IMG/VR virus record: IMGVR_UViG_2541047866_000012
Source: a virus
Lineage: Duplodnaviria; Heunggongvirae; Uroviricota; Caudoviricetes
Length of the DNA: 44,933 nt
Strand: one strand, 5' to 3'
Both the position numbers and the translations under genes were made by a program. The first letter of the stretch is position 1; every line of letters begins with the position of its first letter. Below the pieces are notes generated by a model. That model was not told the origin of the DNA, did not search any database, and saw only the letters and a program-made list of their open reading frames with translations. Below are positions 9,096 through 44,933 of this stretch, one piece after another.

Positions 9096-9639
9096 TCATC
9101 ACTGGAAAGTGGAAAAACAGCCTGAGTGGTACGTGAAAGCTGTCAGAAAAACTATCGCGGCGTTGCCGGGGGGTTACGCTGAAGCTGCTGAGTGGCTGGA
9201 TGTAACAGAGAACGCTTTATTCAACCGCCTTCGTGCAGATGGCGATCAGATTTTCCCGCTGGGATGGGCAATGATTTTACAGCGTGCTGCTGGCACTCAC
9301 TACATTGCGGATGCTGTCGCACAGTCTGCTGGTGGGGTGTTTGTATCGCTTCCTGAAATTGAGGAAGTAGAGAACGCAGATATAAACCAGCGCCTGCTGG
9401 AAGTCATCGAACAGATCGGGAGTTACTCAAAGCAGATTCGTTCGGCAATCGAAGATGGGGTAGTGGAGCCACACGAGCAGACAGCAATTAATGATGAATT
9501 GTATCTGTCAATTTCGAAGCTCCAGGAGCATGCGGCACTGGTCTACAAAATTTTCTGCGCTCCAGAAAAGAGTGACGCCCGCGAGTGTGCAGCTCCGGGC
9601 GTCGTGGCGTTTTGTGTCTGTGGAGAAACTAACGCATGA
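9088..9639 (+). CDS. CII-like early regulatory protein (186-type CII / CP76-like, tentative)
   Basis: 183 aa; GTG start with AGGAGG RBS; position after cro; family assignment from memory only. Confidence 0.55.
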   Translation: MGNHHWKVEKQPEWYVKAVRKTIAALPGGYAEAAEWLDVTENALFNRLRADGDQIFPLGWAMILQRAAGTHYIADAVAQSAGGVFVSLPEIEEVENADINQRLLEVIEQIGSYSKQIRSAIEDGVVEPHEQTAINDELYLSISKLQEHAALVYKIFCAPEKSDARECAAPGVVAFCVCGETNA

Positions 9640-10472
9640 ACAGTTTAACGGCAAATAACCGTTTGTCGCAACAGCTGGTGGTCAGTGTCGCTGCACACCT
9701 GTTGTTACGGCATGAATGCAGATTACCAAATCACCTGGCTGTAAGTAACCACAGAGAACTTTACCTGACTGTGGGGGGCGAGTTGTGCAGGAACTTAACC
9801 GCTGGTTTCGTGACGGAAGAGGACTTTATGTTCATGTTATTCGTTGGGAGCCAGAAACACAGCGCGTTATCTATCTTCGCAAAGACTACCCGCATGAGTG
9901 CTTTAGTCCTTTGTGGAAATTCAGGCGTGATTTTGTTGAGTGTGAAGGACCACCAGCACATTGATTCTGCCATTCCGGGACGTTACACTGTTCAGGCACC
10001 TTATAAAGCGGGTGCCGGGCGTGGCGCCCCGGAATTGCATACGGCGACAATTGGCGCGTTAGCGTCTTTTTTGTTGCTACAACTCAGCTATACCCAAATT
10101 ATGGTGGGCTGGGTGGGGGCACCGAAAGGTGCGCCGGTTTCCGTATGCGCCGGTTACGCCAACCCTGCTCAGTTCACCACCAGCGAAATTGGCGTTTCCG
10201 GTGGTGGAAGTTATCCATTGCATACGGAGGCTGCCATCATGGCTACTGTCCCAGCCCTCTCTCGTCTGAATGATGACGACTTACATAAACTCAGTTATGT
10301 AACAACTGCACTACGTGCTCTGCGCAAGGTAACTCTTTCGGATCCGCAGGCACATCAGGTTCTGGTAGAAACCCTTCTTAACTTGCAGGCTGAACGTATT
10401 CGTCTGGCGGATAAGGCTAATTTTCATATTCACCGTCTCCTTAATATCAGCGGAGGGCATCGTCATGCTTAA
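9636..10472 (+). CDS. Hypothetical protein (frame uncertain in 5' third)
   Basis: 278 aa; start and stop overlap neighbours; 3' half shows purine-first / pyrimidine-third codon bias; an alternative frame at 9785-9963 also reads protein-like. Confidence 0.5.
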   Translation: MNSLTANNRLSQQLVVSVAAHLLLRHECRLPNHLAVSNHRELYLTVGGELCRNLTAGFVTEEDFMFMLFVGSQKHSALSIFAKTTRMSALVLCGNSGVILLSVKDHQHIDSAIPGRYTVQAPYKAGAGRGAPELHTATIGALASFLLLQLSYTQIMVGWVGAPKGAPVSVCAGYANPAQFTTSEIGVSGGGSYPLHTEAAIMATVPALSRLNDDDLHKLSYVTTALRALRKVTLSDPQAHQVLVETLLNLQAERIRLADKANFHIHRLLNISGGHRHA

Positions 10473-10701
10473 TCCGTTGATTCTCAATATTTGCCGTTTT
10501 CTTCAGCGTAAAAAAACATCAATTCCTACAGTTGGGCAGTGGTACACCACGCCTGCAGGGCATGTTCTACGTGTTAGCCTGGTTGACCGTGAATGTCAGA
10601 AGGTGATTTGTGAACCGCTGGGCCGTAATTACCGCGTCAGTATGCCGCTTATAGCCTTTTGCTCCGGAAAAATGTTTAAGCGTCTGGGAGGTGTGGCGTG
10701 A
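10465..10701 (+). CDS. Hypothetical small protein
   Basis: 78 aa; GGAGGG RBS; start and stop overlap neighbours. Confidence 0.5.
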   Translation: MLNPLILNICRFLQRKKTSIPTVGQWYTTPAGHVLRVSLVDRECQKVICEPLGRNYRVSMPLIAFCSGKMFKRLGGVA

Positions 10702-10997
10702 ACTGTTTTCAGTTTGTGTGCGGATGTGCTTTCGATAACCCGATTCAGCGCCTGATTATGTTGCGTGTTTTGATGTCGGGTTCTTCAGACGGTGAAGGCG
10801 AGAGAGTTATTGATCATCAGGTGCTTGCTGATTTCTGCTGTTGTTCTAAGCAAGCGATATTCAGGGAAACCCTGGCACTGGAAAGAGCTGGTTATCTTCA
10901 TATCCGAAAAATTGCAACGCTTACTATTGATGCAAAAGCCAGACTACAACCTGCGCGTGGCTACACAATTCTCATGCTGCGGAAGGAGGTTGTATGA
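10698..10997 (+). CDS. Hypothetical protein, possible HTH
   Basis: 99 aa; GTG start with GGAGG RBS 7 nt upstream; overlapping stops and starts. Confidence 0.55.
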   Translation: MNCFQFVCGCAFDNPIQRLIMLRVLMSGSSDGEGERVIDHQVLADFCCCSKQAIFRETLALERAGYLHIRKIATLTIDAKARLQPARGYTILMLRKEVV

Positions 10998-11989
10998 GCC
11001 GTTACGCCCCCACACCGGAAGTTATGGCTATTGGTCAAATTAATATTTCCGGCAATGTTACACCTGCGACCTGGTGGAAATATATTCGACTACCCAGTGG
11101 GCGTCCGGATGCGACGGCTATCGCTCTGCTTTCAGAGATCGTTTACTGGTACCGCCCGACAGAGGTCAGGGATGAGCACACCGGAGCGTTGCTGGGATAT
11201 CGCAAGCGTTTTCAGGGCGACAAACTGCAAAGAAGCTACCAGGCGTTTGCTGAGCAGTTTGGTTTCGGGAAAAGGGAAACCGCAGATGCGCTGAAGCGTC
11301 TGCGCGATGCAGGGTTTATTACTCTGGATTTACGCACGGTGGAAATGCTCGATGGGGTGAAATGCAGCAATATTTTGTTTGTCGGGATCAACCCACAGGC
11401 AATTGCGGCCATCACCACACCTTCTTCTGTTTCGCCAGAAAGTAACAGCAATAATGCAATCAGCGATACAGCTATTACGTTAAAACGGAACACCCCCCGA
11501 CGTCATAACGGAACAGGGGATACGCCGAATGTTGATACAAATACAGAGATTACTACAGAGATTACTACAGAGATTACAACGGAGACTAAAAACACTATTG
11601 GCGCATCCGCTGACGCGTCTGCACCAGCGCGTTCTGCCAGACAGGAATATTCACCGGAATTTGAACAGGCCTGGCAGGAATATCCCAAACGTGCTGGTGG
11701 TAATTCAAAATCCGCCGCTTTTAAAGCCTGGAAAGCCCGAATCAGGGAAGGTGTGACACCCGAAACCATGCTCGACGGTGTGAAACGCTATGCCGCCTGG
11801 GTGCGTGTCTCTGGAAATACCGGTACCCAGTTCGTGAAGCAGGCGTCGACGTTCTTTGGTCCGGATCGTCATTTCGAAGAATCCTGGGAAGTTCCTGCAG
11901 TATCTGCAGCCAGACGCGAGGACCCGTACTTCAAAGCCAGTTACGACAACGTGGACTACAGCCAGATCCCGGCAGGATTCAGGGGGTGA
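10994..11989 (+). CDS. Replication initiator (O-like replisome organiser) with internal iterons
   Basis: 331 aa; N-terminal replisome-organiser-like region; internal EITTEITTEITTE encoded by 12-bp tandem repeats. Confidence 0.75.
   Translation: MSRYAPTPEVMAIGQINISGNVTPATWWKYIRLPSGRPDATAIALLSEIVYWYRPTEVRDEHTGALLGYRKRFQGDKLQRSYQAFAEQFGFGKRETADALKRLRDAGFITLDLRTVEMLDGVKCSNILFVGINPQAIAAITTPSSVSPESNSNNAISDTAITLKRNTPRRHNGTGDTPNVDTNTEITTEITTEITTETKNTIGASADASAPARSARQEYSPEFEQAWQEYPKRAGGNSKSAAFKAWKARIREGVTPETMLDGVKRYAAWVRVSGNTGTQFVKQASTFFGPDRHFEESWEVPAVSAARREDPYFKASYDNVDYSQIPAGFRG
11543..11587 (+). repeat. About 3.5 tandem copies of 12-bp unit ACAGAGATTACT inside the replication gene; candidate ori iterons
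   Basis: Repeats directly visible; lambda ori likewise lies inside gene O. Confidence 0.45.
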
Positions 11990-23109: not shown

Positions 23110-24617
23110 TGGCAATTCTTGATGATGTGATTGGCGTTTTTTCACCAGGATGGAAAGCGGCAAGGCTGCGTTCCCGTGCGGTGATCCAGGCTTATGAGGC
23201 CGTAAAAACGACGCGGACACACAAAGCCCGGCGGGAAAACCGAACTGCCGACCAGTTAAGCCAGTACGGGGCCGTGTCGTTACGTGAGCAGGCCCGTTAC
23301 CTTGATAACAACCACGATCTGGTTATTGGTGTATTTGACAAGCTGGAAGAACGGGTGGTGGGGAAAAACGGGATTATTGTCGAGCCACATCCGGTATTAC
23401 GCAATGGGGCCATTGCCCGTGATCTGGCAGCAGAGATACGCACCCGATGGAGTGAATGGTCTGTCAGTCCGGAAGTCACCGGGCAGTTTACCCGTCCGAT
23501 GCTGGAACGTCTGATGCTGCGTACCTGGCTGCGCGATGGTGAGGTGTTTGCCCAGATGGTTTCCGGGCGCATAAACAGCCTGACGCCTTCTGCCGGTGTT
23601 CATTTCTGGCTGGAGGCGCTCGAGCCGGACTTTATTCCCATGACCAGTGATGAGAGCAACAGGCTGAATCAGGGCGTGTTTGTTGATGACTGGGGGCGTC
23701 CCGAAAAATATCTGGTGTATAAAAGCCGTCCCGTATCCGGGCGGCAGATGGAAACCAAAGAAGTGGATGCAGAGCGAATGCTGCATCTTAAATTTGTTCG
23801 CCGTCTGCACCAGATGCGCGGGACGTCTTTGTTGTCCGGTGTGCTGATCCGCCTCAGTGCCCTGAAAGAGTATGAAGATTCTGAGCTGACTGCAGCAAGG
23901 ATCGCCGCTGCTCTGGGGATGTACATCCGGAAAGGCGACGGGCAGAGCTATGAACCGGATGGTAATGGCAGCAAGGAGAATGAACGCGAGCTTACCATTC
24001 AGCCAGGCATTATTTACGACGATCTGAAACCCGGCGAAGAAATCGGAATGGTGAAGTCGGATCGTCCCAATCCTAACCTTGAAACTTTTCGTAATGGTCA
24101 GTTGCGTGCCGTGGCGGCGGGCAGTCGTCTGAGTTTTTCCAGTACGGCACGCAACTATAACGGCACTTACAGCGCCCAGCGTCAGGAGCTGGTTGAATCC
24201 ACTGATGGCTACCTGATCCTGCAGGACTGGTTTATTGGTGCCGTCACCCGCCCGATGTATCGTGCCTGGCTGAAACAGGCTGTGGCATCCGGTGTTATCA
24301 GGCTACCCCGCGATCTTGACCGTTCTTCACTGTATACCGCGGTGTATTCCGGACCGGTGATGCCGTGGATTGACCCTGTTAAGGAGGCTGAGGCCTGGAA
24401 AATTCAGATTCGTGGCGGAGCGGCGACAGAATCAGACTGGGTACGTGCAGGTGGTCGTAATCCGGATGATGTCAAACGTCGGCGCAAGGCAGAAATTGAT
24501 GAAAACCGCAAGCTGGATCTGGTATTTGATACCGATCCGGCCAGTGATAAAGGAGGCAGCAGTGCCGCAACGAAACGACAGGAGCCGCAGCACACCGACG
24601 ACCAGTCCGAAGAATAA
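23109..24617 (+). CDS. Portal protein (lambda B family)
   Basis: 502 aa from ATG 23109 (MAILDDVIGVF...); size and position as for portal. Confidence 0.9.
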   Translation: MAILDDVIGVFSPGWKAARLRSRAVIQAYEAVKTTRTHKARRENRTADQLSQYGAVSLREQARYLDNNHDLVIGVFDKLEERVVGKNGIIVEPHPVLRNGAIARDLAAEIRTRWSEWSVSPEVTGQFTRPMLERLMLRTWLRDGEVFAQMVSGRINSLTPSAGVHFWLEALEPDFIPMTSDESNRLNQGVFVDDWGRPEKYLVYKSRPVSGRQMETKEVDAERMLHLKFVRRLHQMRGTSLLSGVLIRLSALKEYEDSELTAARIAAALGMYIRKGDGQSYEPDGNGSKENERELTIQPGIIYDDLKPGEEIGMVKSDRPNPNLETFRNGQLRAVAAGSRLSFSSTARNYNGTYSAQRQELVESTDGYLILQDWFIGAVTRPMYRAWLKQAVASGVIRLPRDLDRSSLYTAVYSGPVMPWIDPVKEAEAWKIQIRGGAATESDWVRAGGRNPDDVKRRRKAEIDENRKLDLVFDTDPASDKGGSSAATKRQEPQHTDDQSEE

Positions 24618-26589
24618 TTCCTGGTTCAGGATGCAGGCTGGTCACCAGAGTGACGCGGATATTTATATTTATGACGAGATTGGTTTCTGGGGTGTTACAG
24701 CGAAGCAGTTTATCAGTGATCTGAATGCACTGGGCGATATCACCCACATTAATCTCCATATCAATTCACCGGGTGGCGATGTCTTTGAAGGCATCGCCAT
24801 TTTTAATGCGCTGAAAACACATGGTGCGTCCATTACCGTTTATGTCGACGGTGTGGCGGCGTCAATGGCGTCGGTCATTGCGATGGTGGGAAACCCGGTC
24901 ATTATGCCGGAAAACACCTTCATGATGATTCATAAACCATTTGGCTTTACGGGCGGTGATGCGGAGGACATGCGCACCTATGCCGACCTGCTCGATAAGG
25001 TTGAGGCGGTTCTGTTACCCGCTTATGCACAGAAAACCGGGAAAACCACCGATGAAATTGCTGCCATGCTGGCGGATGAGACCTGGATGTCCGGTGCCGA
25101 ATGTCTGGCACATGGATTTGCTGATCAGGTGACGCCAGCCGTTAAGGCAATGGCATGTATTCAGTCAAAACGTACAGAGGAATTTAAAAAGATGCCGGAA
25201 TCCATTCGAAACATGATTACTCCGCCACGCAACAGTGCTCCACGCGTACAGGATGATGAACCTGCAGCCTCCCGGACGCCAGTGCAGGCAGCAGCACCCG
25301 TGGTGGATGAAAACAGTATCCGTGCGCAGGTACTGGCAGAGCAAAAAGCGCGTGTAAACGGTATTAATGATCTGTTTGCCATGTTTGGCGGGCGTTATCA
25401 GACGCTACAGGCTCAGTGTCTTGCCGATCCTGAATGTTCGCTGGAGCAGGCCCGCGAAAAGCTGTTGAACGAGATGGGGCGCGAGTCCACGCCATCCAAT
25501 AAAAATACCCCGGCTCATATTTATGCCGGTAACGGTAATTTTGTGGGGGACGGGATCCGCCAGGCGCTGATGGCGCGTGCCGGATTTGAAAAAACCGAAC
25601 GTGATAATGTCTACAACGGGATGACCCTGCGTGAATATGCCCGTATGTCACTGACTGAACGGGGTATTGGGGTTTCCAGTTATAACCCGATGCAGATGGT
25701 CGGTGCGGCGTTCACACACAGTACGTCTGACTTCGGTAATATTCTGCTGGATGTTGCGAACAAAGCCATTCTGCAGGGCTGGGAAGATGCTCCTGAAACC
25801 TATGAACAGTGGACGCGGAAAGGTCAGTTGTCTGATTTTAAAATTGCCCATCGTGTGGGTATGGGGGGCTTCAGTGCTCTGCGTCAGGTGCGTGAAGGGG
25901 CGGAATATAAATACGTCACCACCGGAGATAAACAGGCCACTATTGCACTGGCGACCTATGGCGAGCTGTTCAGTATCACCCGTCAGGCCATTATCAATGA
26001 TGATCTGAATATGCTGACCGATGTCCCGATGAAACTGGGCCGTGCGGCGAAATCCACTATTGCCGATCTGGTTTATGCCATTCTGACGTCTAACCCGAAA
26101 ATCTCCACAGATAATGTAAGTCTGTTCGATAAAGCGAAACATGCAAACGTACTGGAGAGCGCTGCAATGGACGTGGCATCGCTGGATAAAGCCCGCCAGT
26201 TGATGCGCGTTCAGAAAGAGGGGGAGCGTCATCTGAATATTCGTCCTGCGTTCGTACTGGTACCGACGGCGATGGAGTCTGTTGCTAACCAGGTCATTCG
26301 CTCCTCAAGTGTCAAGGGGGCTGACATTAACGCCGGTATTATTAACCCGGTGAAAGATTTTGCGACCGTTATTGCAGAGCCTCGTCTTGATGATAACAGC
26401 CAGACCACCTTCTACCTGGCTGCGTCAAAAGGCTCCGATACAATTGAAGTGGCTTATCTCAACGGTGTGGATACGCCATATATTGATCAGATGGAGGGCT
26501 TCAGTGTGGATGGCGTGACAACGAAAGTGCGTATTGACGCCGGTGTCGCGCCAGTTGATCACCGCGGTCTGGTGAAATGTACGGCGTAA
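24562..26589 (+). CDS. Fused prohead protease (ClpP-like S14) - scaffold-like linker - major capsid protein
   Basis: Start proposed at GTG 24562 (AGGAGG RBS 5 nt upstream; alternative ATG 24631); ClpP-like INSPGGDVFEG, GVAASMAS, MMIHKP; C-terminal about 340 aa capsid-like domain. Confidence 0.88.
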   Translation: MPQRNDRSRSTPTTSPKNNSWFRMQAGHQSDADIYIYDEIGFWGVTAKQFISDLNALGDITHINLHINSPGGDVFEGIAIFNALKTHGASITVYVDGVAASMASVIAMVGNPVIMPENTFMMIHKPFGFTGGDAEDMRTYADLLDKVEAVLLPAYAQKTGKTTDEIAAMLADETWMSGAECLAHGFADQVTPAVKAMACIQSKRTEEFKKMPESIRNMITPPRNSAPRVQDDEPAASRTPVQAAAPVVDENSIRAQVLAEQKARVNGINDLFAMFGGRYQTLQAQCLADPECSLEQAREKLLNEMGRESTPSNKNTPAHIYAGNGNFVGDGIRQALMARAGFEKTERDNVYNGMTLREYARMSLTERGIGVSSYNPMQMVGAAFTHSTSDFGNILLDVANKAILQGWEDAPETYEQWTRKGQLSDFKIAHRVGMGGFSALRQVREGAEYKYVTTGDKQATIALATYGELFSITRQAIINDDLNMLTDVPMKLGRAAKSTIADLVYAILTSNPKISTDNVSLFDKAKHANVLESAAMDVASLDKARQLMRVQKEGERHLNIRPAFVLVPTAMESVANQVIRSSSVKGADINAGIINPVKDFATVIAEPRLDDNSQTTFYLAASKGSDTIEVAYLNGVDTPYIDQMEGFSVDGVTTKVRIDAGVAPVDHRGLVKCTA

Positions 26590-35224: not shown

Positions 35225-38200
35225 ATGGGTAAAGGCAGCAGTAAGGGACATACCCCGCGCGAAGCAAAGGACAATCTGAAGTCCACGCAGTTGCTGAGTG
35301 TGATCGATGCCATCAGCGAAGGGCCGATTGAAGGTCCGGTGGATGGATTAAAAAGCGTGCTGCTGAACAGTACGCCGGTGCTGGACAGTGAGGGGAATAC
35401 CAACATCTCCGGTGTCACGGTGGTGTTCCGGGCAGGTGAGCAGGAACAGACACCGCCGGAGGGATTTGAATCCTCCGGATCCGAGACGGTGCTGGGTACG
35501 GAAGTGAAATACGACACGCCGATCACCCGGACCATCACGTCTGCAAACATCGACCGTCTGCGCTTTACCTTCGGTGTGCAGGCACTGGTGGAAACCACCT
35601 CAAAGGGGGACCGGAATCCGTCGGAAGTCCGCCTGCTGGTTCAGATACAGCGTAATGGTGGCTGGGTGACGGAAAAAGACATCACCATTAAGGGCAAAAC
35701 CACCTCGCAGTATCTGGCCTCGGTGGTGGTGGATAACCTGCCGCCGCGCCCGTTTAATATCCGGATGCGCAGAATGACGCCGGACAGCACCACAGACCAG
35801 CTGCAGAACAAAACGCTCTGGTCGTCATACACCGAAATCATCGATGTGAAACAGTGCTACCCGAACACGGCACTGGTCGGCGTGCAGGTGGATTCGGAGC
35901 AGTTCGGCAGCCAGCAGGTGAGCCGTAATTATCATCTGCGCGGGCGTATTCTGCAGGTGCCGTCGAATTATAACCCGCAGACGCGGCAATACAGCGGTAT
36001 CTGGGACGGAACGTTTAAACCGGCATACAGCAACAACATGGCCTGGTGTCTGTGGGATATGCTGACCCATCCGCGCTACGGCATGGGGAAACGTCTTGGT
36101 GCGGCGGATGTGGATAAATGGGCGCTGTATGTCATCGGCCAGAATTGCGACCAGTCGGTGCCGGATGGCTTTGGTGGCACGGAGCCGCGCATCACCTGTA
36201 ACGCTTACCTGACCACGCAGCGTAAGGCGTGGGATGTTCTCAGCGATTTCTGCTCGGCGATGCGCTGTATGCCGGTATGGAACGGGCAGACGCTGACGTT
36301 CGTGCAGGACCGACCGTCGGATAAGGTGTGGACCTATAACCGCAGTAATGTGGTGATGCCGGATGATGGCGCGCCGTTCCGCTACAGCTTCAGCGCCCTG
36401 AAGGACCGCCATAATGCCGTTGAGGTGAACTGGATTGACCCGGATAACGGCTGGGAGACGGCGACAGAGCTTGTGGAGGACACGCAGGCCATTGCCCGTT
36501 ACGGTCGTAACGTCACGAAGATGGATGCCTTTGGCTGTACCAGTCGGGGGCAGGCACACCGCGCCGGGCTGTGGCTGATTAAAACGGAACTGCTGGAAAC
36601 GCAGACCGTGGATTTCAGCGTCGGCGCAGAAGGGCTTCGCCATGTACCGGGCGATGTTATTGAAATCTGTGATGATGACTATGCCGGTATCAGCACCGGT
36701 GGTCGTGTGCTGGCGGTGAACAGCCAGACCCGGAAGCTGACGCTCGACCGTGAAATCACGCTGCCATCCTCCGGTACCACGCTGATAAGCCTGGTTGACG
36801 GAAGTGGCAATCCGGTCAGCGTGGAGGTCCAGTCCGTCACCGACGGCGTGAAGGTGAAAGTGAGCCGGGTTCCTGACGGCGTTGCCGAGTACAGCGTGTG
36901 GGGGCTGAAGCTGCCGACGCTGCGCCAGCGCCTGTTCCGCTGTGTGAGTATCCGTGAGAACGATGACGGCACGTATGCCATCACTGCCGTGCAGCATGTA
37001 CCGGAAAAAGAGGCCATCGTGGATAACGGGGCGCACTTTGACGGCGACCAGAGCGGCACGGTGAATGGTGTCACGCCGCCAGCGGTGCAGCACCTGACTG
37101 CCGAAGTCACCGCAGACAGCGGGGAATATCAGGTGCTGGCGCGCTGGGACACGCCGAAGGTGGTGAAGGGGGTGAGCTTTATGCTTCGCCTGACCGTGGC
37201 AGCGGATGACGGCAGTGAGCGGCTGGTCAGCACGGCCCGGACGACGGAAACCACATACCGCTTCACGCAACTGGCGCTGGGGCGGTACACGCTGACAGTC
37301 CGGGCGGTAAATGCGTGGGGACAGCAGGGCGATCCGGCGTCGGTATCGTTCCGGATTGCCGCACCGGCAGCACCGTCGAGGATTGAGCTGACGCCGGGCT
37401 ATTTTCAGATAACCGCCACGCCGCATCTTGCCGTTTATGACCCGACGGTACAGTTTGAGTTCTGGTTCTCGGAAAAGCGGATTACCGATATCAGGCAGGT
37501 TGAAACCACAGCCCGCTATCTTGGTACGGCGCTGTACTGGATAGCCGCCAGTATCAATATCAAACCGGGCCATGATTATTACTTTTATATCCGCAGTGTG
37601 AACACCGTTGGCAAATCGGCATTCGTGGAGGCCGTCGGTCGGGCGAGCGATGATGCGGAAGGTTACCTGGATTTTTTCAAAGGCAAGATAACCGAATCCC
37701 ATCTCGGCAAGGAGCTGCTGGAAAAAGTCGAGCTGACGGAGGATAACGCCAGCAGACTGGAGGAGTTTTCGAAAGAGTGGAAGGACGCCAACGATAAATG
37801 GAATGCCATGTGGGGCGTCAAAATTGAGCAGACCAAAGACGGCAAACATTATGTCGCGGGGCTTGGCCTCAGCATGGAGGATACGGAGGAAGGCAAACTG
37901 AGCCAGTTCCTGGTTGCCGCTAACCGTATCGCGTTTATTGACCCGGCAAACGGGAATGAAACGCCGATGTTTGTGGCGCAGGGCAACCAGATATTCATGA
38001 ACGAAGTGTTCCTGAAGTATCTGACGGCTCCCACCATTACCAGCGGCGGTAATCCTCCGGCATTTTCCCTGACACCGGACGGGCGGCTGACGGCGAGAAA
38101 TGCTGATATCAGCGGTAACGTGAATGCGAACTCCGGGACGCTCAATAATGTCACGGTAAATGAAAACTGTACGATTAAGGGCATGCTGGAGGCGAACCAG

Positions 38201-38638
38201 GTCAGAGGTGACTTCGTTAAAACTGTATCCAAATCATTCCCGAAAAAGGCTGGTACGTGGGGTAACACGGAAACACCAAACGGGACGGTTACAGTCACCA
38301 TTTACGATGATCATAACTTTGACCGCCAAATCATTATTCCGCCCATTATTTTTAACGGTGTGGCGTATGACGATCCGGGGAGCGGTAATAACCCGGGAGG
38401 TACGCGATACACGGGTTATGGTTTTGAAGTTCGCAAAAATGGCGTATTAATCGCATCCAGAGAAACTAAAGGAGCCATTCCCGGTAGTTACAGTGCGGTT
38501 ATTGATATGCCGAGTGGTGGTGGTAACGTCACTCTGGAGTTTAAGATTTTCCAGAAAGGCAATCAGGGCGCAGGAAACATCACAGACTGTACGGTGATTG
38601 TGACCAAAAAAGCTGCTTCCGGTATCAGTATCCGTTGA
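35225..38638 (+). CDS. Tail tip / host specificity protein J, divergent C-terminal receptor-binding domain
   Basis: 1137 aa; first about 980 residues near-identical to recalled lambda J; last about 150 residues (from about nt 38180) differ. Confidence 0.96.
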
Positions 38639-38658: not shown

Positions 38659-38684
38659 GGGCGCCAGCAATGGCGCCTTTTTTA
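38659..38684 (+). terminator. Intrinsic terminator after J
   Basis: Hairpin GGCGCC-AGCAAT-GGCGCC followed by TTTTTT. Confidence 0.65.
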
Positions 38685-38698
38685 TTTGTGGAGTGAGT

Positions 38699-41071
38699 AT
38701 GGCAGTACAGATTTCAGGTGTGCTGAAAGATGGTGCGGGAAAACCAATACAGAACTGCACTATTCAACTGAAGGCAAAGCGTAACAGCACCACGGTACTG
38801 GTGAACACGGTGGCCTCTGAAAATCCGGATGAAGCCGGGCGTTACAGCATGGATGTTGAGTATGGCCAGTACAGCGTCATCCTGCTGGTTGAAGGTTTTC
38901 CGCCTTCACATGCCGGGACCATTACCGTCTATGAAGGCTCCAGACCAGGTACGCTGAATGATTTTCTCGGTGCCATGACGGAAGATGATGTCATGCCGGA
39001 GGCATTGCGTCGTTTTGAGGAAATGGTGGAAGAAGCGGCACGCAACGCTGAAGCCGCCTCTCAGAGCGCAGCGGCGGCAAAGAAATCCGAAACTGCAGCG
39101 GCATCATCGAAGAACGCGGCGAAAACCTCAGAAACGAATGCAGCTAATAGTGCACAGGCGGCAGCGACCTCACAGACTGCATCAGCAAACTCCGCGACAG
39201 CAGCCAAAAAATCAGAAACCAACGCGAAAAATAGCGAGACAGCCGCAAAGACGAGCGAAACCAACGCAAAGTCCAGCCAGACGGCAGCGAAGACCAGCGA
39301 AACGAATGCTAAAGCCAGTGAAACTGCGGCAAAAAACAGCCAGGTTGCAGCAGCCCAAAGCGAGAGCGCGGCAGCCGGTTCTGCGACTTCAGCAGCTGGA
39401 TCAGCAACTGCTGCGGCTAACAGCCAGAAAGCTGCGAAGACGAGTGAAACTAACGCAAAGTCCAGCCAGACGGCAGCGAAGACCAGCGAAACGAATGCCA
39501 AAGCCAGTGAAACTGCGGCGAAAAGCAGTCAGGATGCAGCGGCCCAAAGCGAGAGTGCCGCAGCCAGTTCTGCAAGTGAGGCGGCGGCTTCTGCTACTGC
39601 ATCAGCCAACAGTCAAAAAGCTGCAAAAACCAGTGAAACCAACGCAAAGGCGAGCGAGACTACGGCGGCCAACTCGGCGAAAGCATCCGCTGCAAGCCAG
39701 ACCGCTGCAAAAGCAAGTGAAGACGCAGCCAGAGAGTATGCAAGCCAGGCAGCAGATCCGTATAAATATGTCTTACAGCCGCTACCTGATGTGTGGATAC
39801 CGTTTAACGATTCACTGGATATGATTACGGGCTTTTCGCCATCATATAAAAAGATTGTTATTGGTGACGACGAAATAACGATGCCTGGCGACAAGATTGT
39901 TAAGTTTAAACGTGCATCGAAAGCAACCTATATTAACAAATCTGGTGTGCTGACAGAGGCTGCCATTGATGAGCCTCGATTTGAACGTGATGGCCTGCTT
40001 ATTGAGGGGCAAAGAACGAACTACATGCTCAATTCGGAAAACCCTGCCAGTTGGGGGCGATCGTCAAATATGGATGTTCCCGAAACCGGGACGGATAGTT
40101 TTGGTTTTACCTATGGAAAGTTTGTCTGTAACGATTCTCTGATTGGGCAAACCTCAGCCATTAATATGGCATCAATTGCTGCAACAAAGTCAGTTGATGT
40201 CTCAGGCGATAATAAATACGTGACAACCTCATGTCGTTTTAAAACAGAACTGCAGGTAAGGTTGCGTATCCGATTTGATAAATATGACGGTAGCGCAACA
40301 ACTTTTCTTGGTGATGCGTATATTGATACACAAACGCTTGAAATTAATATGACAGGCGGCGCTGCCTCAAGGATTACAGCGAGAGTCAGAAAGGACGAAG
40401 CTACCGGATGGATTTTTGCAGAGGCAACAATTCAGGCAATTGATGGGGAGTTAAAAATAGGTTCTCAGATACAGTATTCTCCTAAGCAGGGCGGGGCAAC
40501 CGTATCTGGTGACTATATTTATCTGGCCACCCCACAAGTAGAAAATGGGCCTTGTGTATCATCTTTTATTATATCAGGAACGACGGCGGCGACCCGCGCA
40601 AGCGATATAGTTACAGTTCCCATTAAGAATAATCTTTATAATCTTCCTTTTACGGTTCTTTGTGAGGTACATAAGAACTGGTATAAAACGCCAAATGCAG
40701 CGCCGCGTGTTTTTGACACCGGCGGTCATCAAACCGGAGCGGCTATTATTCTTGGCTTCGGTTCTTCAGCAGATTACGACGGATTTCCTTATTGCGATAT
40801 TGGAGGAGCTAACAGACGGGTAAACGAAAACGCATTGCTTGAAAAAATGGTTATGGGGATGCGTGTAAAGTCAGATCAGTCTACGTGCTCAGTAAGTAAC
40901 GGGCGTATATCCAGCGAAACAAAAACCACATGGTCCTGTATTCAGAACACCGCAATTATCCGTATTGGAGGCCAGACTACAGCCGGGTTACGTCATTTAT
41001 TTGGTCATGTCAGGAATTTCAGAATATGGCACAAGGCATTGACTGATGCTCAGGTGGGGGAGTCAATCTAA
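38699..41071 (+). CDS. stf: Side tail fibre: lambda Stf-like N-terminus, KTSETNAK-type repeat shaft, replaced C-terminal LamG/ConA-like domain
   Basis: ATG 38699 with GGAG RBS; N-terminus MAVQISGVLKDGAGKPIQNCTIQLKAKRNSTTV matches lambda Stf; C-terminal about 430 aa unlike lambda Stf, ending ...LFGHVRNFRIWHKALTDAQV. Confidence 0.9.
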   Translation: MAVQISGVLKDGAGKPIQNCTIQLKAKRNSTTVLVNTVASENPDEAGRYSMDVEYGQYSVILLVEGFPPSHAGTITVYEGSRPGTLNDFLGAMTEDDVMPEALRRFEEMVEEAARNAEAASQSAAAAKKSETAAASSKNAAKTSETNAANSAQAAATSQTASANSATAAKKSETNAKNSETAAKTSETNAKSSQTAAKTSETNAKASETAAKNSQVAAAQSESAAAGSATSAAGSATAAANSQKAAKTSETNAKSSQTAAKTSETNAKASETAAKSSQDAAAQSESAAASSASEAAASATASANSQKAAKTSETNAKASETTAANSAKASAASQTAAKASEDAAREYASQAADPYKYVLQPLPDVWIPFNDSLDMITGFSPSYKKIVIGDDEITMPGDKIVKFKRASKATYINKSGVLTEAAIDEPRFERDGLLIEGQRTNYMLNSENPASWGRSSNMDVPETGTDSFGFTYGKFVCNDSLIGQTSAINMASIAATKSVDVSGDNKYVTTSCRFKTELQVRLRIRFDKYDGSATTFLGDAYIDTQTLEINMTGGAASRITARVRKDEATGWIFAEATIQAIDGELKIGSQIQYSPKQGGATVSGDYIYLATPQVENGPCVSSFIISGTTAATRASDIVTVPIKNNLYNLPFTVLCEVHKNWYKTPNAAPRVFDTGGHQTGAAIILGFGSSADYDGFPYCDIGGANRRVNENALLEKMVMGMRVKSDQSTCSVSNGRISSETKTTWSCIQNTAIIRIGGQTTAGLRHLFGHVRNFRIWHKALTDAQVGESI
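39251..39628 (+). repeat. In-frame 189-bp tandem duplication (about 90 percent identical) within stf shaft
   Basis: Copy 1 from 39251 and copy 2 from 39440 (ACGAG(C/T)GAAAC(C/T)AACGCAAAGTCCAGCCAGACGGCAGCGAAGACCAGCGAAACGAATGC...); further diverged KxSETNAK units upstream. Confidence 0.8.
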
Positions 41072-41352
41072 TGAAAGATTTAACACTCAAATTTGCCGAC
41101 AGGGCCGACTTTTCGGCCTTTATGGAGAGTATTGGCTATTATGATGACGAGTCGATGCAGGATGATATTCTTATTGACGTGATAGGTAACGTGTACAAAG
41201 AAAACGGAGAACTGAATGAAGATGGCGAACCGGTATGTGTTAAGGACGACGGATATTTTGTAAACGTGCGCATCATTAATGATGTGAAAACACCATCAAT
41301 ATTCGATGAATACGTGGTTGCTGTTGAGCATCAACTTCGTGGCTGGATGTGA
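41071..41352 (+). CDS. Hypothetical acidic small protein, translationally coupled to stf
   Basis: 93 aa; TAATG overlap with stf stop; no recognised motif. Confidence 0.6.
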   Translation: MKDLTLKFADRADFSAFMESIGYYDDESMQDDILIDVIGNVYKENGELNEDGEPVCVKDDGYFVNVRIINDVKTPSIFDEYVVAVEHQLRGWM

Positions 41353-41361
41353 GGAAGAAAA

Positions 41362-42402
41362 ATGGCTACATCGACAGTAATTCCTGATGACATCAAAACG
41401 CTAAAATCCGACGTTAGCAAATTAAAAAACGATCAAGGAAGCTACGCAACAAAATCATATGTAGACAGCAAAGATGAAACCGTTGGTGACTGGTCTGCTT
41501 CATGGTATCAGCAGGTATTGCCAACTAGCGGAGCTATATTTGGGAGAAAACTCCGCTCAACTCACAGGACGGCAGGTGTTGAGGATGCGTATTGCGAACT
41601 ATACCTCAAAAAATGGATAGACAGTCCAGGTAACGCAATGGCGCGCCTTAACCTGAACGATAACGGGACAAACATTTGCTGGGACTTTACCAACCTTTAT
41701 GGCGGTACGATGATTTTTCCCGGTGACAGCGGATACCTCAAAATGGGTAACTGCCTTATGTCATACAGCAAGCGTGGAAGTAACGCGCTTATTAAATTTG
41801 ATTACACCGACACATTACAGATCAAATATGCCAATCATGGGTCAACCATGACATTAAACACACAGGGAACCGCTCATTCTGGCGCTACTACTAGTTTGTG
41901 GGGTAACTCTACCCGTCCGGTTGTATATGAAGTTGGTGCTGATGGTGGCGCGTATATGTTCTATGCGCAGAAAAATACCGATAACACCTATATGTTAAGC
42001 GTTAATGGTGCATGTCATGCCACCGCATTTAACCAGCATTCCGACCGGGATCTGAAAGACAACATTCAGGTGATCGATAATGCAACCGACCGCATCCGTA
42101 AAATGAACGGCTATACATACACGCTTAAAGAAAACGGTATGCCCTATGCTGGTGTCATTGCACAGGAAGCACTGGAAGCAATCCCAGAAGTTGTAGGTTC
42201 CGCAATGAAATATCAGGACGGTGCAGGCGGATCGGAAGGTGAAGAAGGTGAACGTTATTACACAGTAGATTATTCTGGTGTTACTGGCTTGCTTGTTCAG
42301 GTAGCCAGAGAGTCAGACGACAGAATAACAGCACTGGAAGAAGAAAACGCAGAATTAAGACAAAGATTATCTGCAATTGAGGCGGCGCTTGCGTCTAAAT
42401 AA
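41362..42402 (+). CDS. Tail fibre / tailspike-like protein with C-terminal intramolecular chaperone (peptidase S74) domain
   Basis: 346 aa; C-terminal HSDRDLKDNIQVIDNATDRIRKMNGYTYTLKENG...AGVIAQEALEAIPEVV plus terminal coiled coil fits the self-cleaving chaperone signature. Confidence 0.8.
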   Translation: MATSTVIPDDIKTLKSDVSKLKNDQGSYATKSYVDSKDETVGDWSASWYQQVLPTSGAIFGRKLRSTHRTAGVEDAYCELYLKKWIDSPGNAMARLNLNDNGTNICWDFTNLYGGTMIFPGDSGYLKMGNCLMSYSKRGSNALIKFDYTDTLQIKYANHGSTMTLNTQGTAHSGATTSLWGNSTRPVVYEVGADGGAYMFYAQKNTDNTYMLSVNGACHATAFNQHSDRDLKDNIQVIDNATDRIRKMNGYTYTLKENGMPYAGVIAQEALEAIPEVVGSAMKYQDGAGGSEGEEGERYYTVDYSGVTGLLVQVARESDDRITALEEENAELRQRLSAIEAALASK

Positions 42403-43041: not shown

Positions 43042-43800
43042 TTAACATTCTGGATTTTTTATTTCTAAATCAGATAAAGCATTAATTCTTATTTTTTCTA
43101 AGGCTTTATCCATGGCCCCCTTGATTCTGTATCCATAATCATCCGGTTCTTCATATTCCTGTGGGGACGGATTTGTACCAATATTCTCAATCAATTCATT
43201 TAAAATAACTGTTACTTCTTTATTAAGAAGAACTGCTTTAGTTAACATCATCTCTGTTAATGCTGTGAAGGCTAGGCTAAGTTTCTGTTGTAGCTCTTTA
43301 TTTTTTAATTTTAGATCTTCATCGTTTAGTGCTTTATCACGGTCTTCGTGAGCCTGTTGTACTTCATCCCAAAACTGCTTTTCTTGTTCTTGATTAAAAT
43401 ATCCTTGATAACTATTGGCTACATATGTTGGCATCATGTGAATCTCAATAATTTCAAATTCATTATCAGCCCATTTTTTTATACTAAGTAACTGTGTGTA
43501 AATGTACTCATACATATCGTACTTTTTTTGCCAGATTTGTTGAGAAATCCACAACTCAGAAGTAATCTTTTTTTCTATATCTTTGATAGTTGTTGTATTT
43601 AATGCTAACTGCTTTCTGAGTATTTCATAGTTAGCGTTGGTAGCAGAAATTTTTGCTTTTTCAGTTATAAAAGAAACAATAAAGTTCACTATGAGAGCTA
43701 CAATAATAATAGCGAAGCTCAACCCCAAAATCTCTGTGGTTGAGAAATTGGATGACTGTAATGCTTTGATAAGTTCAAAAAACTGTTTTTCTGTGAGCAT
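43042..43800 (-). CDS. AT-rich single-TM coiled-coil membrane protein, unknown function (cargo gene B)
   Basis: 252 aa; TAAGG RBS; TM helix about residues 24-45; Lys/Glu/Gln-rich coiled-coil-like remainder. Confidence 0.8.
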   Translation of the reverse strand: MLTEKQFFELIKALQSSNFSTTEILGLSFAIIIVALIVNFIVSFITEKAKISATNANYEILRKQLALNTTTIKDIEKKITSELWISQQIWQKKYDMYEYIYTQLLSIKKWADNEFEIIEIHMMPTYVANSYQGYFNQEQEKQFWDEVQQAHEDRDKALNDEDLKLKNKELQQKLSLAFTALTEMMLTKAVLLNKEVTVILNELIENIGTNPSPQEYEEPDDYGYRIKGAMDKALEKIRINALSDLEIKNPEC

Positions 43801-43898: not shown

Positions 43899-44933
43899 TC
43901 AAGGAGGTGAGATTGTAGAGGCGTTACCTTGTTCTATCACACCAGACCTAATCTTGTAACTACCAAGGATGTTGACCGTTTTATTATTTTTCATCGCGTC
44001 AAAAATTAAGCCTATTTCATCAGGGTCATTGATAAAACTGGTATCAACATAGATCGGGAATGAATCATCACCTGTTGGCTCATGGCAGCTTAACGTTAGC
44101 TTATCGGCTGAGCGTTTTATACTATCAATGACAACTTCCAATGTTTGCTGCTCTGACTTAGCCTTTTCAATTGGGTTCTTGATGATTTCTTGAACCTGAC
44201 CTTGCGAAAGTTCAATATTGCTGGCCCCGCGGATCGTCACTTTGTCTGCATCAGATGCACCTTTAAGAACTCCAGTGTATGCCTTAGCGGTGTGCTCTTG
44301 GATACCTTCGGCGCGCTCTATCGTATCAATACCTTCATGTGCTTTTATTGCAGACAGCATACCATCGCGTAGAATTGTCATCCGCTCGGATTCTGCTCGC
44401 TGTTTTGCTTCTTCCTGTTGTAACTCAATAGTTTTGGTTTCGACTTGTGTCTGATGATCTAAGTAGGACGTACCGACCCATGCGCCGCCTAAAACTAAGA
44501 CAGCAAACAGGAAACACATTGTTTTCTGTCTTGGGCTCATACCTTGTGTTACCTTCTCAAATGCGTTACCAAAGGAATCAATAAGTTCTTTAACTGAGGT
44601 GATAATTTCTGTACAGCCAGGTTTGATAGTAAAAACCAACTCTGCAGCTTCTCTATCCTCAGCAGTGAGCTTCTGTAAGTTAGAGGTTTTGTACTTGATT
44701 AGAGTAAAAACCTTGTACATCTCAGTTTGAAATTCACAAATACCCTGTGCCAAACCTGCAGGCAGAGTACCATTATACTTATCTTCATCACCAAAAAATT
44801 TGAAATCAATACTTTCTAAGAAGTTTAACTTCAAATTTTCAATGTGGATTTCTTCGCCTGAAATAACTCGGTCGAAAATATTTCCTATATCATCAATATC
44901 ATTGATTTCATAGGTCTGAATTGCATCTTCCAT
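43899..44933 (-). CDS. AT-rich single-TM membrane protein, unknown function (cargo gene A)
   Basis: 344 aa; start ATG is the last three bases of the window; internal TM helix about residues 138-158 (TMCFLFAVLVLGGAWVGTSYL). Confidence 0.8.
   Translation of the reverse strand: MEDAIQTYEINDIDDIGNIFDRVISGEEIHIENLKLNFLESIDFKFFGDEDKYNGTLPAGLAQGICEFQTEMYKVFTLIKYKTSNLQKLTAEDREAAELVFTIKPGCTEIITSVKELIDSFGNAFEKVTQGMSPRQKTMCFLFAVLVLGGAWVGTSYLDHQTQVETKTIELQQEEAKQRAESERMTILRDGMLSAIKAHEGIDTIERAEGIQEHTAKAYTGVLKGASDADKVTIRGASNIELSQGQVQEIIKNPIEKAKSEQQTLEVVIDSIKRSADKLTLSCHEPTGDDSFPIYVDTSFINDPDEIGLIFDAMKNNKTVNILGSYKIRSGVIEQGNASTISPP

Follow-up and report, generated by a model that had tools for sequence, protein, structure and literature searches.

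A predicted phage 434-type receptor-binding domain at the C-terminus of the J tail tip protein of a lambdoid prophage

The h434 host-range allele of J, the tip attachment or central tail fibre protein, is an old tool of lambda genetics. Its classical form is present in the hybrid lambda h434 imm21 (PMC9119081), and OmpC serves as receptor both for phage 434 and for lambda whose J gene comes from 434 (PMC3509688, PMC11101478, PMC12502783). An AlphaFold3 model has the trimeric fibre of 434 docked on trimeric OmpC (PMC12502783). In lambda, four distal loops of the C-terminal Ig-like domain of J enter LamB, the trimer spreads as a result and the tail tip is thereby made to open; modelling indicated that the loops of OmpC clash with the open lambda J domain (PMC11101478). 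Residues 960-1132 of lambda J constitute an independently recombining "specificity region", whose modular exchange was analysed in 1207 natural homologues, and four indel hot spots (1012, 1048-1049, 1077-1078, and 1107) mark the natural J lineages (Maddamsetti et al., PMC6646904). Small numbers of substitutions can alter receptor use. With four mutations lambda can already use OmpF, only the changes at 1012 and 1107 being always required (PMC6646904), a single J mutation opens OmpC to phage 21, a native LamB user (PMC11336670), and the OmpC-binding gpJ variants A8 and 1A2 differ in the OmpC alleles that they accept (PMC11338833).

The window analysed here, meaning the whole stretch of 44,933 nucleotides, contains a lambdoid prophage that has integrated between the genes yjjG and prfC, and the 12 kb at the right-hand end of the window match E. 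coli FDAARGOS_1303 with 100% identity. The J gene (35225..38638, + strand) is an intact open reading frame of 1137 residues, the stop codon ending at 38638, as compared with 1132 residues for lambda J (NC_001416 15505-18903). Six gpJ-specific Pfam families, FNIII-A_GpJ, Phage-tail_3, Ig_J, Ig_J_second, Phage_Tail_Tip and Ig_GpJ_C, were found in the expected order, all above their cut-offs, and the protein was collinear with lambda J. The gene has the place expected of gpJ, downstream of the tail-tip genes (M, L, K, I) and ahead of those for the side tail fibres: on the upstream side Pfam identified Lambda_tail_I and a K-like protein of the JAB/NlpC-P60 type, and on the downstream side phage_tail_N (stf), in agreement with RefSeq, where the protein is named gpJ (WP_021548540.1, annotated in E. 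coli FDAARGOS_1303). Two further reading frames within J, 37849..38301 (-) and 38160..38450 (+), are mechanical ORFs without support, and a database fragment designated P0028 is a frameshift chimera of an alternative frame inside the gene. A terminator-like GC-rich hairpin followed by a T-run (38659..38688, + strand), with an 8-bp stem that includes 6 GC pairs, begins 21 nt past the J stop; it is a consensus match only, and the phage 434 record has a terminator annotated at the equivalent site.

J was compared with lambda J by MAFFT alignment, a check that the earlier note had proposed. Residues 1-985 (35225..38179, + strand), which comprise the hub domains, the FNIII and Ig domains, the helical shaft and most of the beta-prism fibre, were identical to lambda at 955/985 positions (97.0%), while residues 986-1137 (38180..38635, + strand), the putative receptor-binding or specificity domain, were identical at only 55/158 aligned positions (34.8%; 34.6% in the domain-wise comparison). 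Near-identity to lambda J over about 980 residues followed by divergence to the end, as the earlier note had described, was thus borne out. The nucleotide identity was about 0.95 up to 38024, mostly 0.92-1.00 with one window at 0.89, then fell to 0.86 (38025-38124) and 0.74 (38125-38224) and remained at about 0.4-0.5 to the end of the gene. The motif at which the note had placed the start of the divergence begins at residue 981 (nt 38165), so the boundary was right to within five residues; its starting coordinate of 38180, residue 986, is the onset of the sharp drop and lies 15 nt downstream of the start of the motif. A step from 97% to 35% within a single ORF, with five indels that all fall in the last 130 residues, is far beyond chance.

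Ahead of the sharp drop there is a transition zone (residues about 927-985; 38003..38179, + strand) in which substitutions build up. At residues 927, 932, 954, 958, 965 and 978, lambda and 434 are alike and the prophage J departs from both, and 10 substitutions relative to 434 J were counted over residues 927-985. The same variants were also found in J proteins of other receptor-binding classes, which points to a further recombination junction inside J, within the beta-prism part.

The divergent segment nevertheless belongs to the family of the lambda domain. Pfam PF12421 (Ig_GpJ_C), the C-terminal receptor-binding domain of lambda J, matched residues 1001-1136 with 88.8 bits against a cut-off of 26.2 and covered profile positions 1-134 of 135. 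The core common to all J C-terminus classes, DDHxFDRQ, DMPxGxG and KK..GIS, was retained. An AlphaFold2 model of the domain, computed as a monomer from 21 homologues with moderate overall confidence (mean pLDDT 66.5), was an all-beta structure with an Ig-like beta-sandwich resembling the solved lambda J domain, in which the block-mean pLDDT was about 70-94 over residues 997-1132; the trimeric prism that precedes the domain was poorly modelled, as is expected of a monomer prediction. The top Foldseek matches to the model were 8xck, 9wca, 8xcj and 9wcb, with E-values of 1e-14 to 1e-20, scores that are owed in part to sequence similarity. Of these, 8xck is the closed lambda J fibre, 8xcj the lambda J-LamB complex, 9wca A8 gpJ and 9wcb the A8 gpJ-OmpC complex. 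Judging from the profile match and the predicted fold, the end of J is an allele that shares the family and fold of the lambda domain while differing strongly in sequence, and replacement by a non-homologous domain was ruled out. The description of the domain as "non-lambda" in the earlier note is therefore too strong.

Relative to lambda J, the five indels were +2 residues at 1011/1012, +6 at 1043-1049, +1 at 1078, +2 at 1099 and -6 at 1109-1114. As aligned, they coincide with the four hot spots reported for natural J lineages (PMC6646904), and in the AlphaFold2 model they sit between or beside predicted strands. The loop GTWGNT (residues 1010-1015; 38252..38269, + strand), which is 2 residues longer than in lambda and aligns with the 1012 hot spot, lies between predicted strands 1007-1009 and 1016-1018 and is identical in phage 434. 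The 6-residue insertion forms part of a long hairpin (residues about 1046-1058; 38360..38398, + strand) that aligns with the hot spot at lambda 1043-1049 and is the same in 434 except for V1046I. The third segment (residues 1108-1121; 38546..38587, + strand) has first 2 residues more and then 6 fewer than lambda, aligns with the 1107 hot spot and holds 3 of the 11 differences from 434, I1108V, Q1110H and G1115R. The large loops set apart from lambda by indels have the same sequence as in 434. In its likeness to lambda J 960-1132, at the positions of residues 1012 and 1107 and in the lengths of its loops, the domain was not of the lambda LamB-binding type.

When the last 150 or so residues were compared with J proteins of known receptor, phage 434, an OmpC user, was the nearest. 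The two domains were 92.8% identical (141/152) without gaps and had the same indel pattern relative to lambda, while the identities to the other alleles were 41.9% (A8-like), 40.6% (phage 21), 37.4% (1A2-like) and 34.6% (lambda). The 11 substitutions that separate the domain from that of 434 are N991T, T1000A, S1004A, A1009V, N1019D, Y1027S, V1046I, N1101S, I1108V, Q1110H and G1115R. At full length, J shared 97% of its residues with 434 J and 99.2% with the J protein of Tritos, both without gaps, and residues 986-1137 were 100% identical to those of Tritos, PhiR11_1 and PhiR63_1. A DNA search of phage genomes with the 459-bp interval gave 99.8% identity in Tritos, HannyBb, PhiR11_1 and PhiR63_1 and about 92% in phage 434, mEp460, cdtI, phage 2851 and many Stx-converting phages. 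The hybrid lambda h434 imm21 gave a single unbroken alignment over the entire J gene, with 95.2% nucleotide identity. Among the phage records, 74 had a J domain at least 90% identical and 169 one less than 60% identical, with none between 60% and 90%, so the J domains fall into discrete allele classes. On these comparisons, the C-terminal domain of J can be assigned to the phage 434 (h434) allele, and J reads as a mosaic of a lambda/434-type body of about 985 residues and a 434-allele Ig-like domain of about 150 residues. Among lambdoid phages, the receptor-binding domain acts as a module that can be swapped. The OmpC-binding Eligo chimeras A8 and 1A2 were considered as carriers of the same allele and rejected, as the A8 PDB sequence and the 1A2 supplementary DNA belong to other classes.

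The allele is already known and ordinary. The 459-bp interval matched 2112 of 5426 complete E. coli genomes (about 39%), 2057 of the matching records being at 90-95% nucleotide identity and 45, the Tritos-type sub-allele, at 99% or more. A protein search with J returned thousands of members annotated as host specificity protein J, and the exact J protein is already listed in RefSeq and occurs in plaque-forming phages that have been sequenced.

The class assignment, together with the receptor reported for phage 434, makes OmpC the likely receptor of this J allele. The earlier note had expected a porin other than LamB, and the expectation is supported by homology, namely the 92.8% gap-free identity to an OmpC-using phage. 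The note had also taken the C-terminal region to be the receptor-binding part of J, which agrees with the insertion of the lambda Ig-like domain loops into LamB (PMC11101478). Tritos, which is prophage 3 of E. coli LF82, forms plaques on MG1655 hsdR- (PMC9928086), and the listed host of PhiR11_1 is K-12 MG1655; the identical domain in these two phages indicates that it is functional on the K-12 surface. We have put the probability of OmpC no higher because there are 11 substitutions relative to 434 and few changes can shift receptor use. Caution in reading the receptor from the allele class alone is also advisable since the domains of phage 21, which uses LamB, and of the A8 type, which uses OmpC, are 82% identical over the aligned region (L005 6568-7173 compared with the A8-like P0052). 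In the literature reached, no adsorption or host-range data were found for this exact J allele, neither receptor nor OmpC occurs as a word in the report on Tritos (PMC9928086), and a search for HannyBb, the PhiR-named phages and STEC1575 together with OmpC returned nothing useful. The passages of the SNIPE paper that were consulted deal with PhiR-style temperate phages, including PhiR68.2, that are named in the manner of the PV340xxx records, and give a dependence on ManYZ and no outer-membrane receptor.

The alternative that survives best, although we consider it rather improbable, is that the Tritos-type sub-allele is 434-like with a specificity that has been shifted by the 11 substitutions, so that only certain OmpC variants, or OmpC and a second porin, are recognized. 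Several observations bear on it: 1) the sub-allele is a discrete cluster, separated in the E. coli genome records (45 at 99% or more) from the far larger group at 90-95%, 2) N1019D, Q1110H and G1115R adjoin positions that align with the lambda hot spots 1012 and 1107, 3) A8 and 1A2 gpJ accept different OmpC alleles (PMC11338833), 4) all of the long loops are nevertheless the same as in 434 and most of the substitutions are conservative (T/A, S/A, V/I, N/D, N/S) and 5) phages with the exact domain grow on K-12, as does 434. The first three speak for a shift and the last two against it. If it were true, the range of the sub-allele would be a natural case of fine-scale receptor tuning inside one J allele class.

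Far less probable is the retention of LamB. Divergence alone is no proof of a change of receptor, for phage 21 natively uses LamB (PMC11336670) with a domain only 45% identical to that of lambda, and divergent alleles can therefore share a receptor. Against retention, the nearest characterised relative, at 92.8% identity, is the OmpC-using 434, replacement of lambda J by the 434 J gene switches binding to OmpC, and the domain resembles the LamB users (35% and 41%) no more than it does A8 and 1A2, which use OmpC (42% and 37%). That the divergent 3' end has no function, as a decayed or chimeric leftover in a defective prophage, is scarcely credible: prophage tail genes often decay and frameshifted fragments of the region occur in databases (e.g. 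P0028 and P0117), but such a reading is already contradicted by the intact ORF, which is collinear with 434 J without a gap and retains the conserved PF12421 core residues, and by the 100% identity of the domain to those of plaque-isolated phages (Tritos, PhiR11_1, PhiR63_1 and HannyBb).

With OmpC as the preferred receptor, a mechanism can be proposed by analogy with the lambda J-LamB and A8 gpJ-OmpC complexes. The second of these structures (9wcb) demonstrates that a domain of this fold is able to dock on OmpC. The J domain, a trimer at the end of the central fibre, would use its distal loops to dock on a trimeric porin, for this allele most likely OmpC, and porin binding would then open the tail tip.

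Several features of the surrounding prophage were recorded. The region that follows J (38693..42402, + strand) has no lom/ail-like gene, unlike lambda and 434; it encodes a 792-residue stf-like fibre with a PF08400 N-terminus, a 93-residue ORF and a second tail fibre of 346 residues with a Peptidase_S74 intramolecular-chaperone domain, and RefSeq also marks a tail fibre assembly gene remnant there. Because there are two tail fibre genes, the virion may bear two kinds of side fibre besides J. The stf-like gene contains imperfect tandem repeats (39215..39660, + strand) with periods of 21, 42 and 189 nt, the 189-nt unit being present in 2.3 copies with an 83% match; the repeats encode an Ala/Ser/Thr/Lys-rich shaft of the AAKTSETNAK type and show a strong A-over-T skew of 0.45-0.6. 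Between the tail fibre cluster and the right end of the prophage, where a DinI-like gene is followed by prfC, there are two hypothetical genes of 252 and 344 residues (43042..43800 and 43899..44933, both - strand) with a GC content of about 0.31-0.46 as compared with about 0.55 in the tail genes. No Pfam family and no meaningful PADLOC match were found for either. The pair sits at a typical accessory or moron position and is possibly an uncharacterised cargo or defence pair.

The head genes (24370..26589, + strand) are not lambda-like, the RefSeq equivalent in FDAARGOS_1303 being a fusion of a ClpP-like prohead protease and the major capsid protein, so that an unusual head module is coupled to a lambda-like tail. 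In the early region, the offset between the window (about 9636..11986) and FDAARGOS_1303 (L006, 11802..13986) changes from 2166 nt on the left of the stretch to 2000 nt on the right, and ORFs of 278 and 331 residues are found where FDAARGOS_1303 has a 383-residue Rha-family protein and others. The change of offset and the differing ORFs indicate that the early or replication region is a different module, although the tail region is 100% identical, a difference that is ordinary lambdoid mosaicism.

The practical value of the result lies in annotation, for the prophage can be labelled as having a 434-class, probably OmpC-dependent, tail tip. The label helps to predict host range, superinfection and transduction partners and aids the choice of natural J domains for engineered lambda-based delivery particles.

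Of the described systems, phage 434 is the closest with a known receptor. Its J protein (OL657226, UMO75286.1) has the same length of 1137 residues and occupies the same place in the tail gene cluster, the difference being that an Ail/Lom-like gene follows J in 434 whereas in the prophage a side tail fibre gene follows directly. The J proteins of Tritos, PhiR11_1, PhiR63_1 and HannyBb have a receptor-binding domain that is identical in amino acid sequence and 99.8% identical in nucleotide sequence. Tritos J has nine substitutions in its body and a different strain background, while the genes downstream, stf-like, the 93-residue ORF and the second tail fibre, are arranged as in the prophage. 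The lambda J domain in complex with LamB (PDB 8xcj and 8xci) shares the Pfam family, the fold, the trimeric fibre context and the conserved core, but is about 35% identical, differs by five indels in or next to loops and recognizes LamB. A8 gpJ (PDB 9wca and 9wcb) and the 1A2 gpJ chimera represent J C-termini from natural E. coli prophages with which lambda particles are retargeted to OmpC, and the point at which these were grafted, lambda residue 964, agrees with the junction in the prophage J (PMC11338833). The A8 domain has the same fold; with identities to the prophage domain of 41.9% (A8-like) and 37.4% (1A2-like), the OmpC contacts of these variants are not transferable residue by residue.
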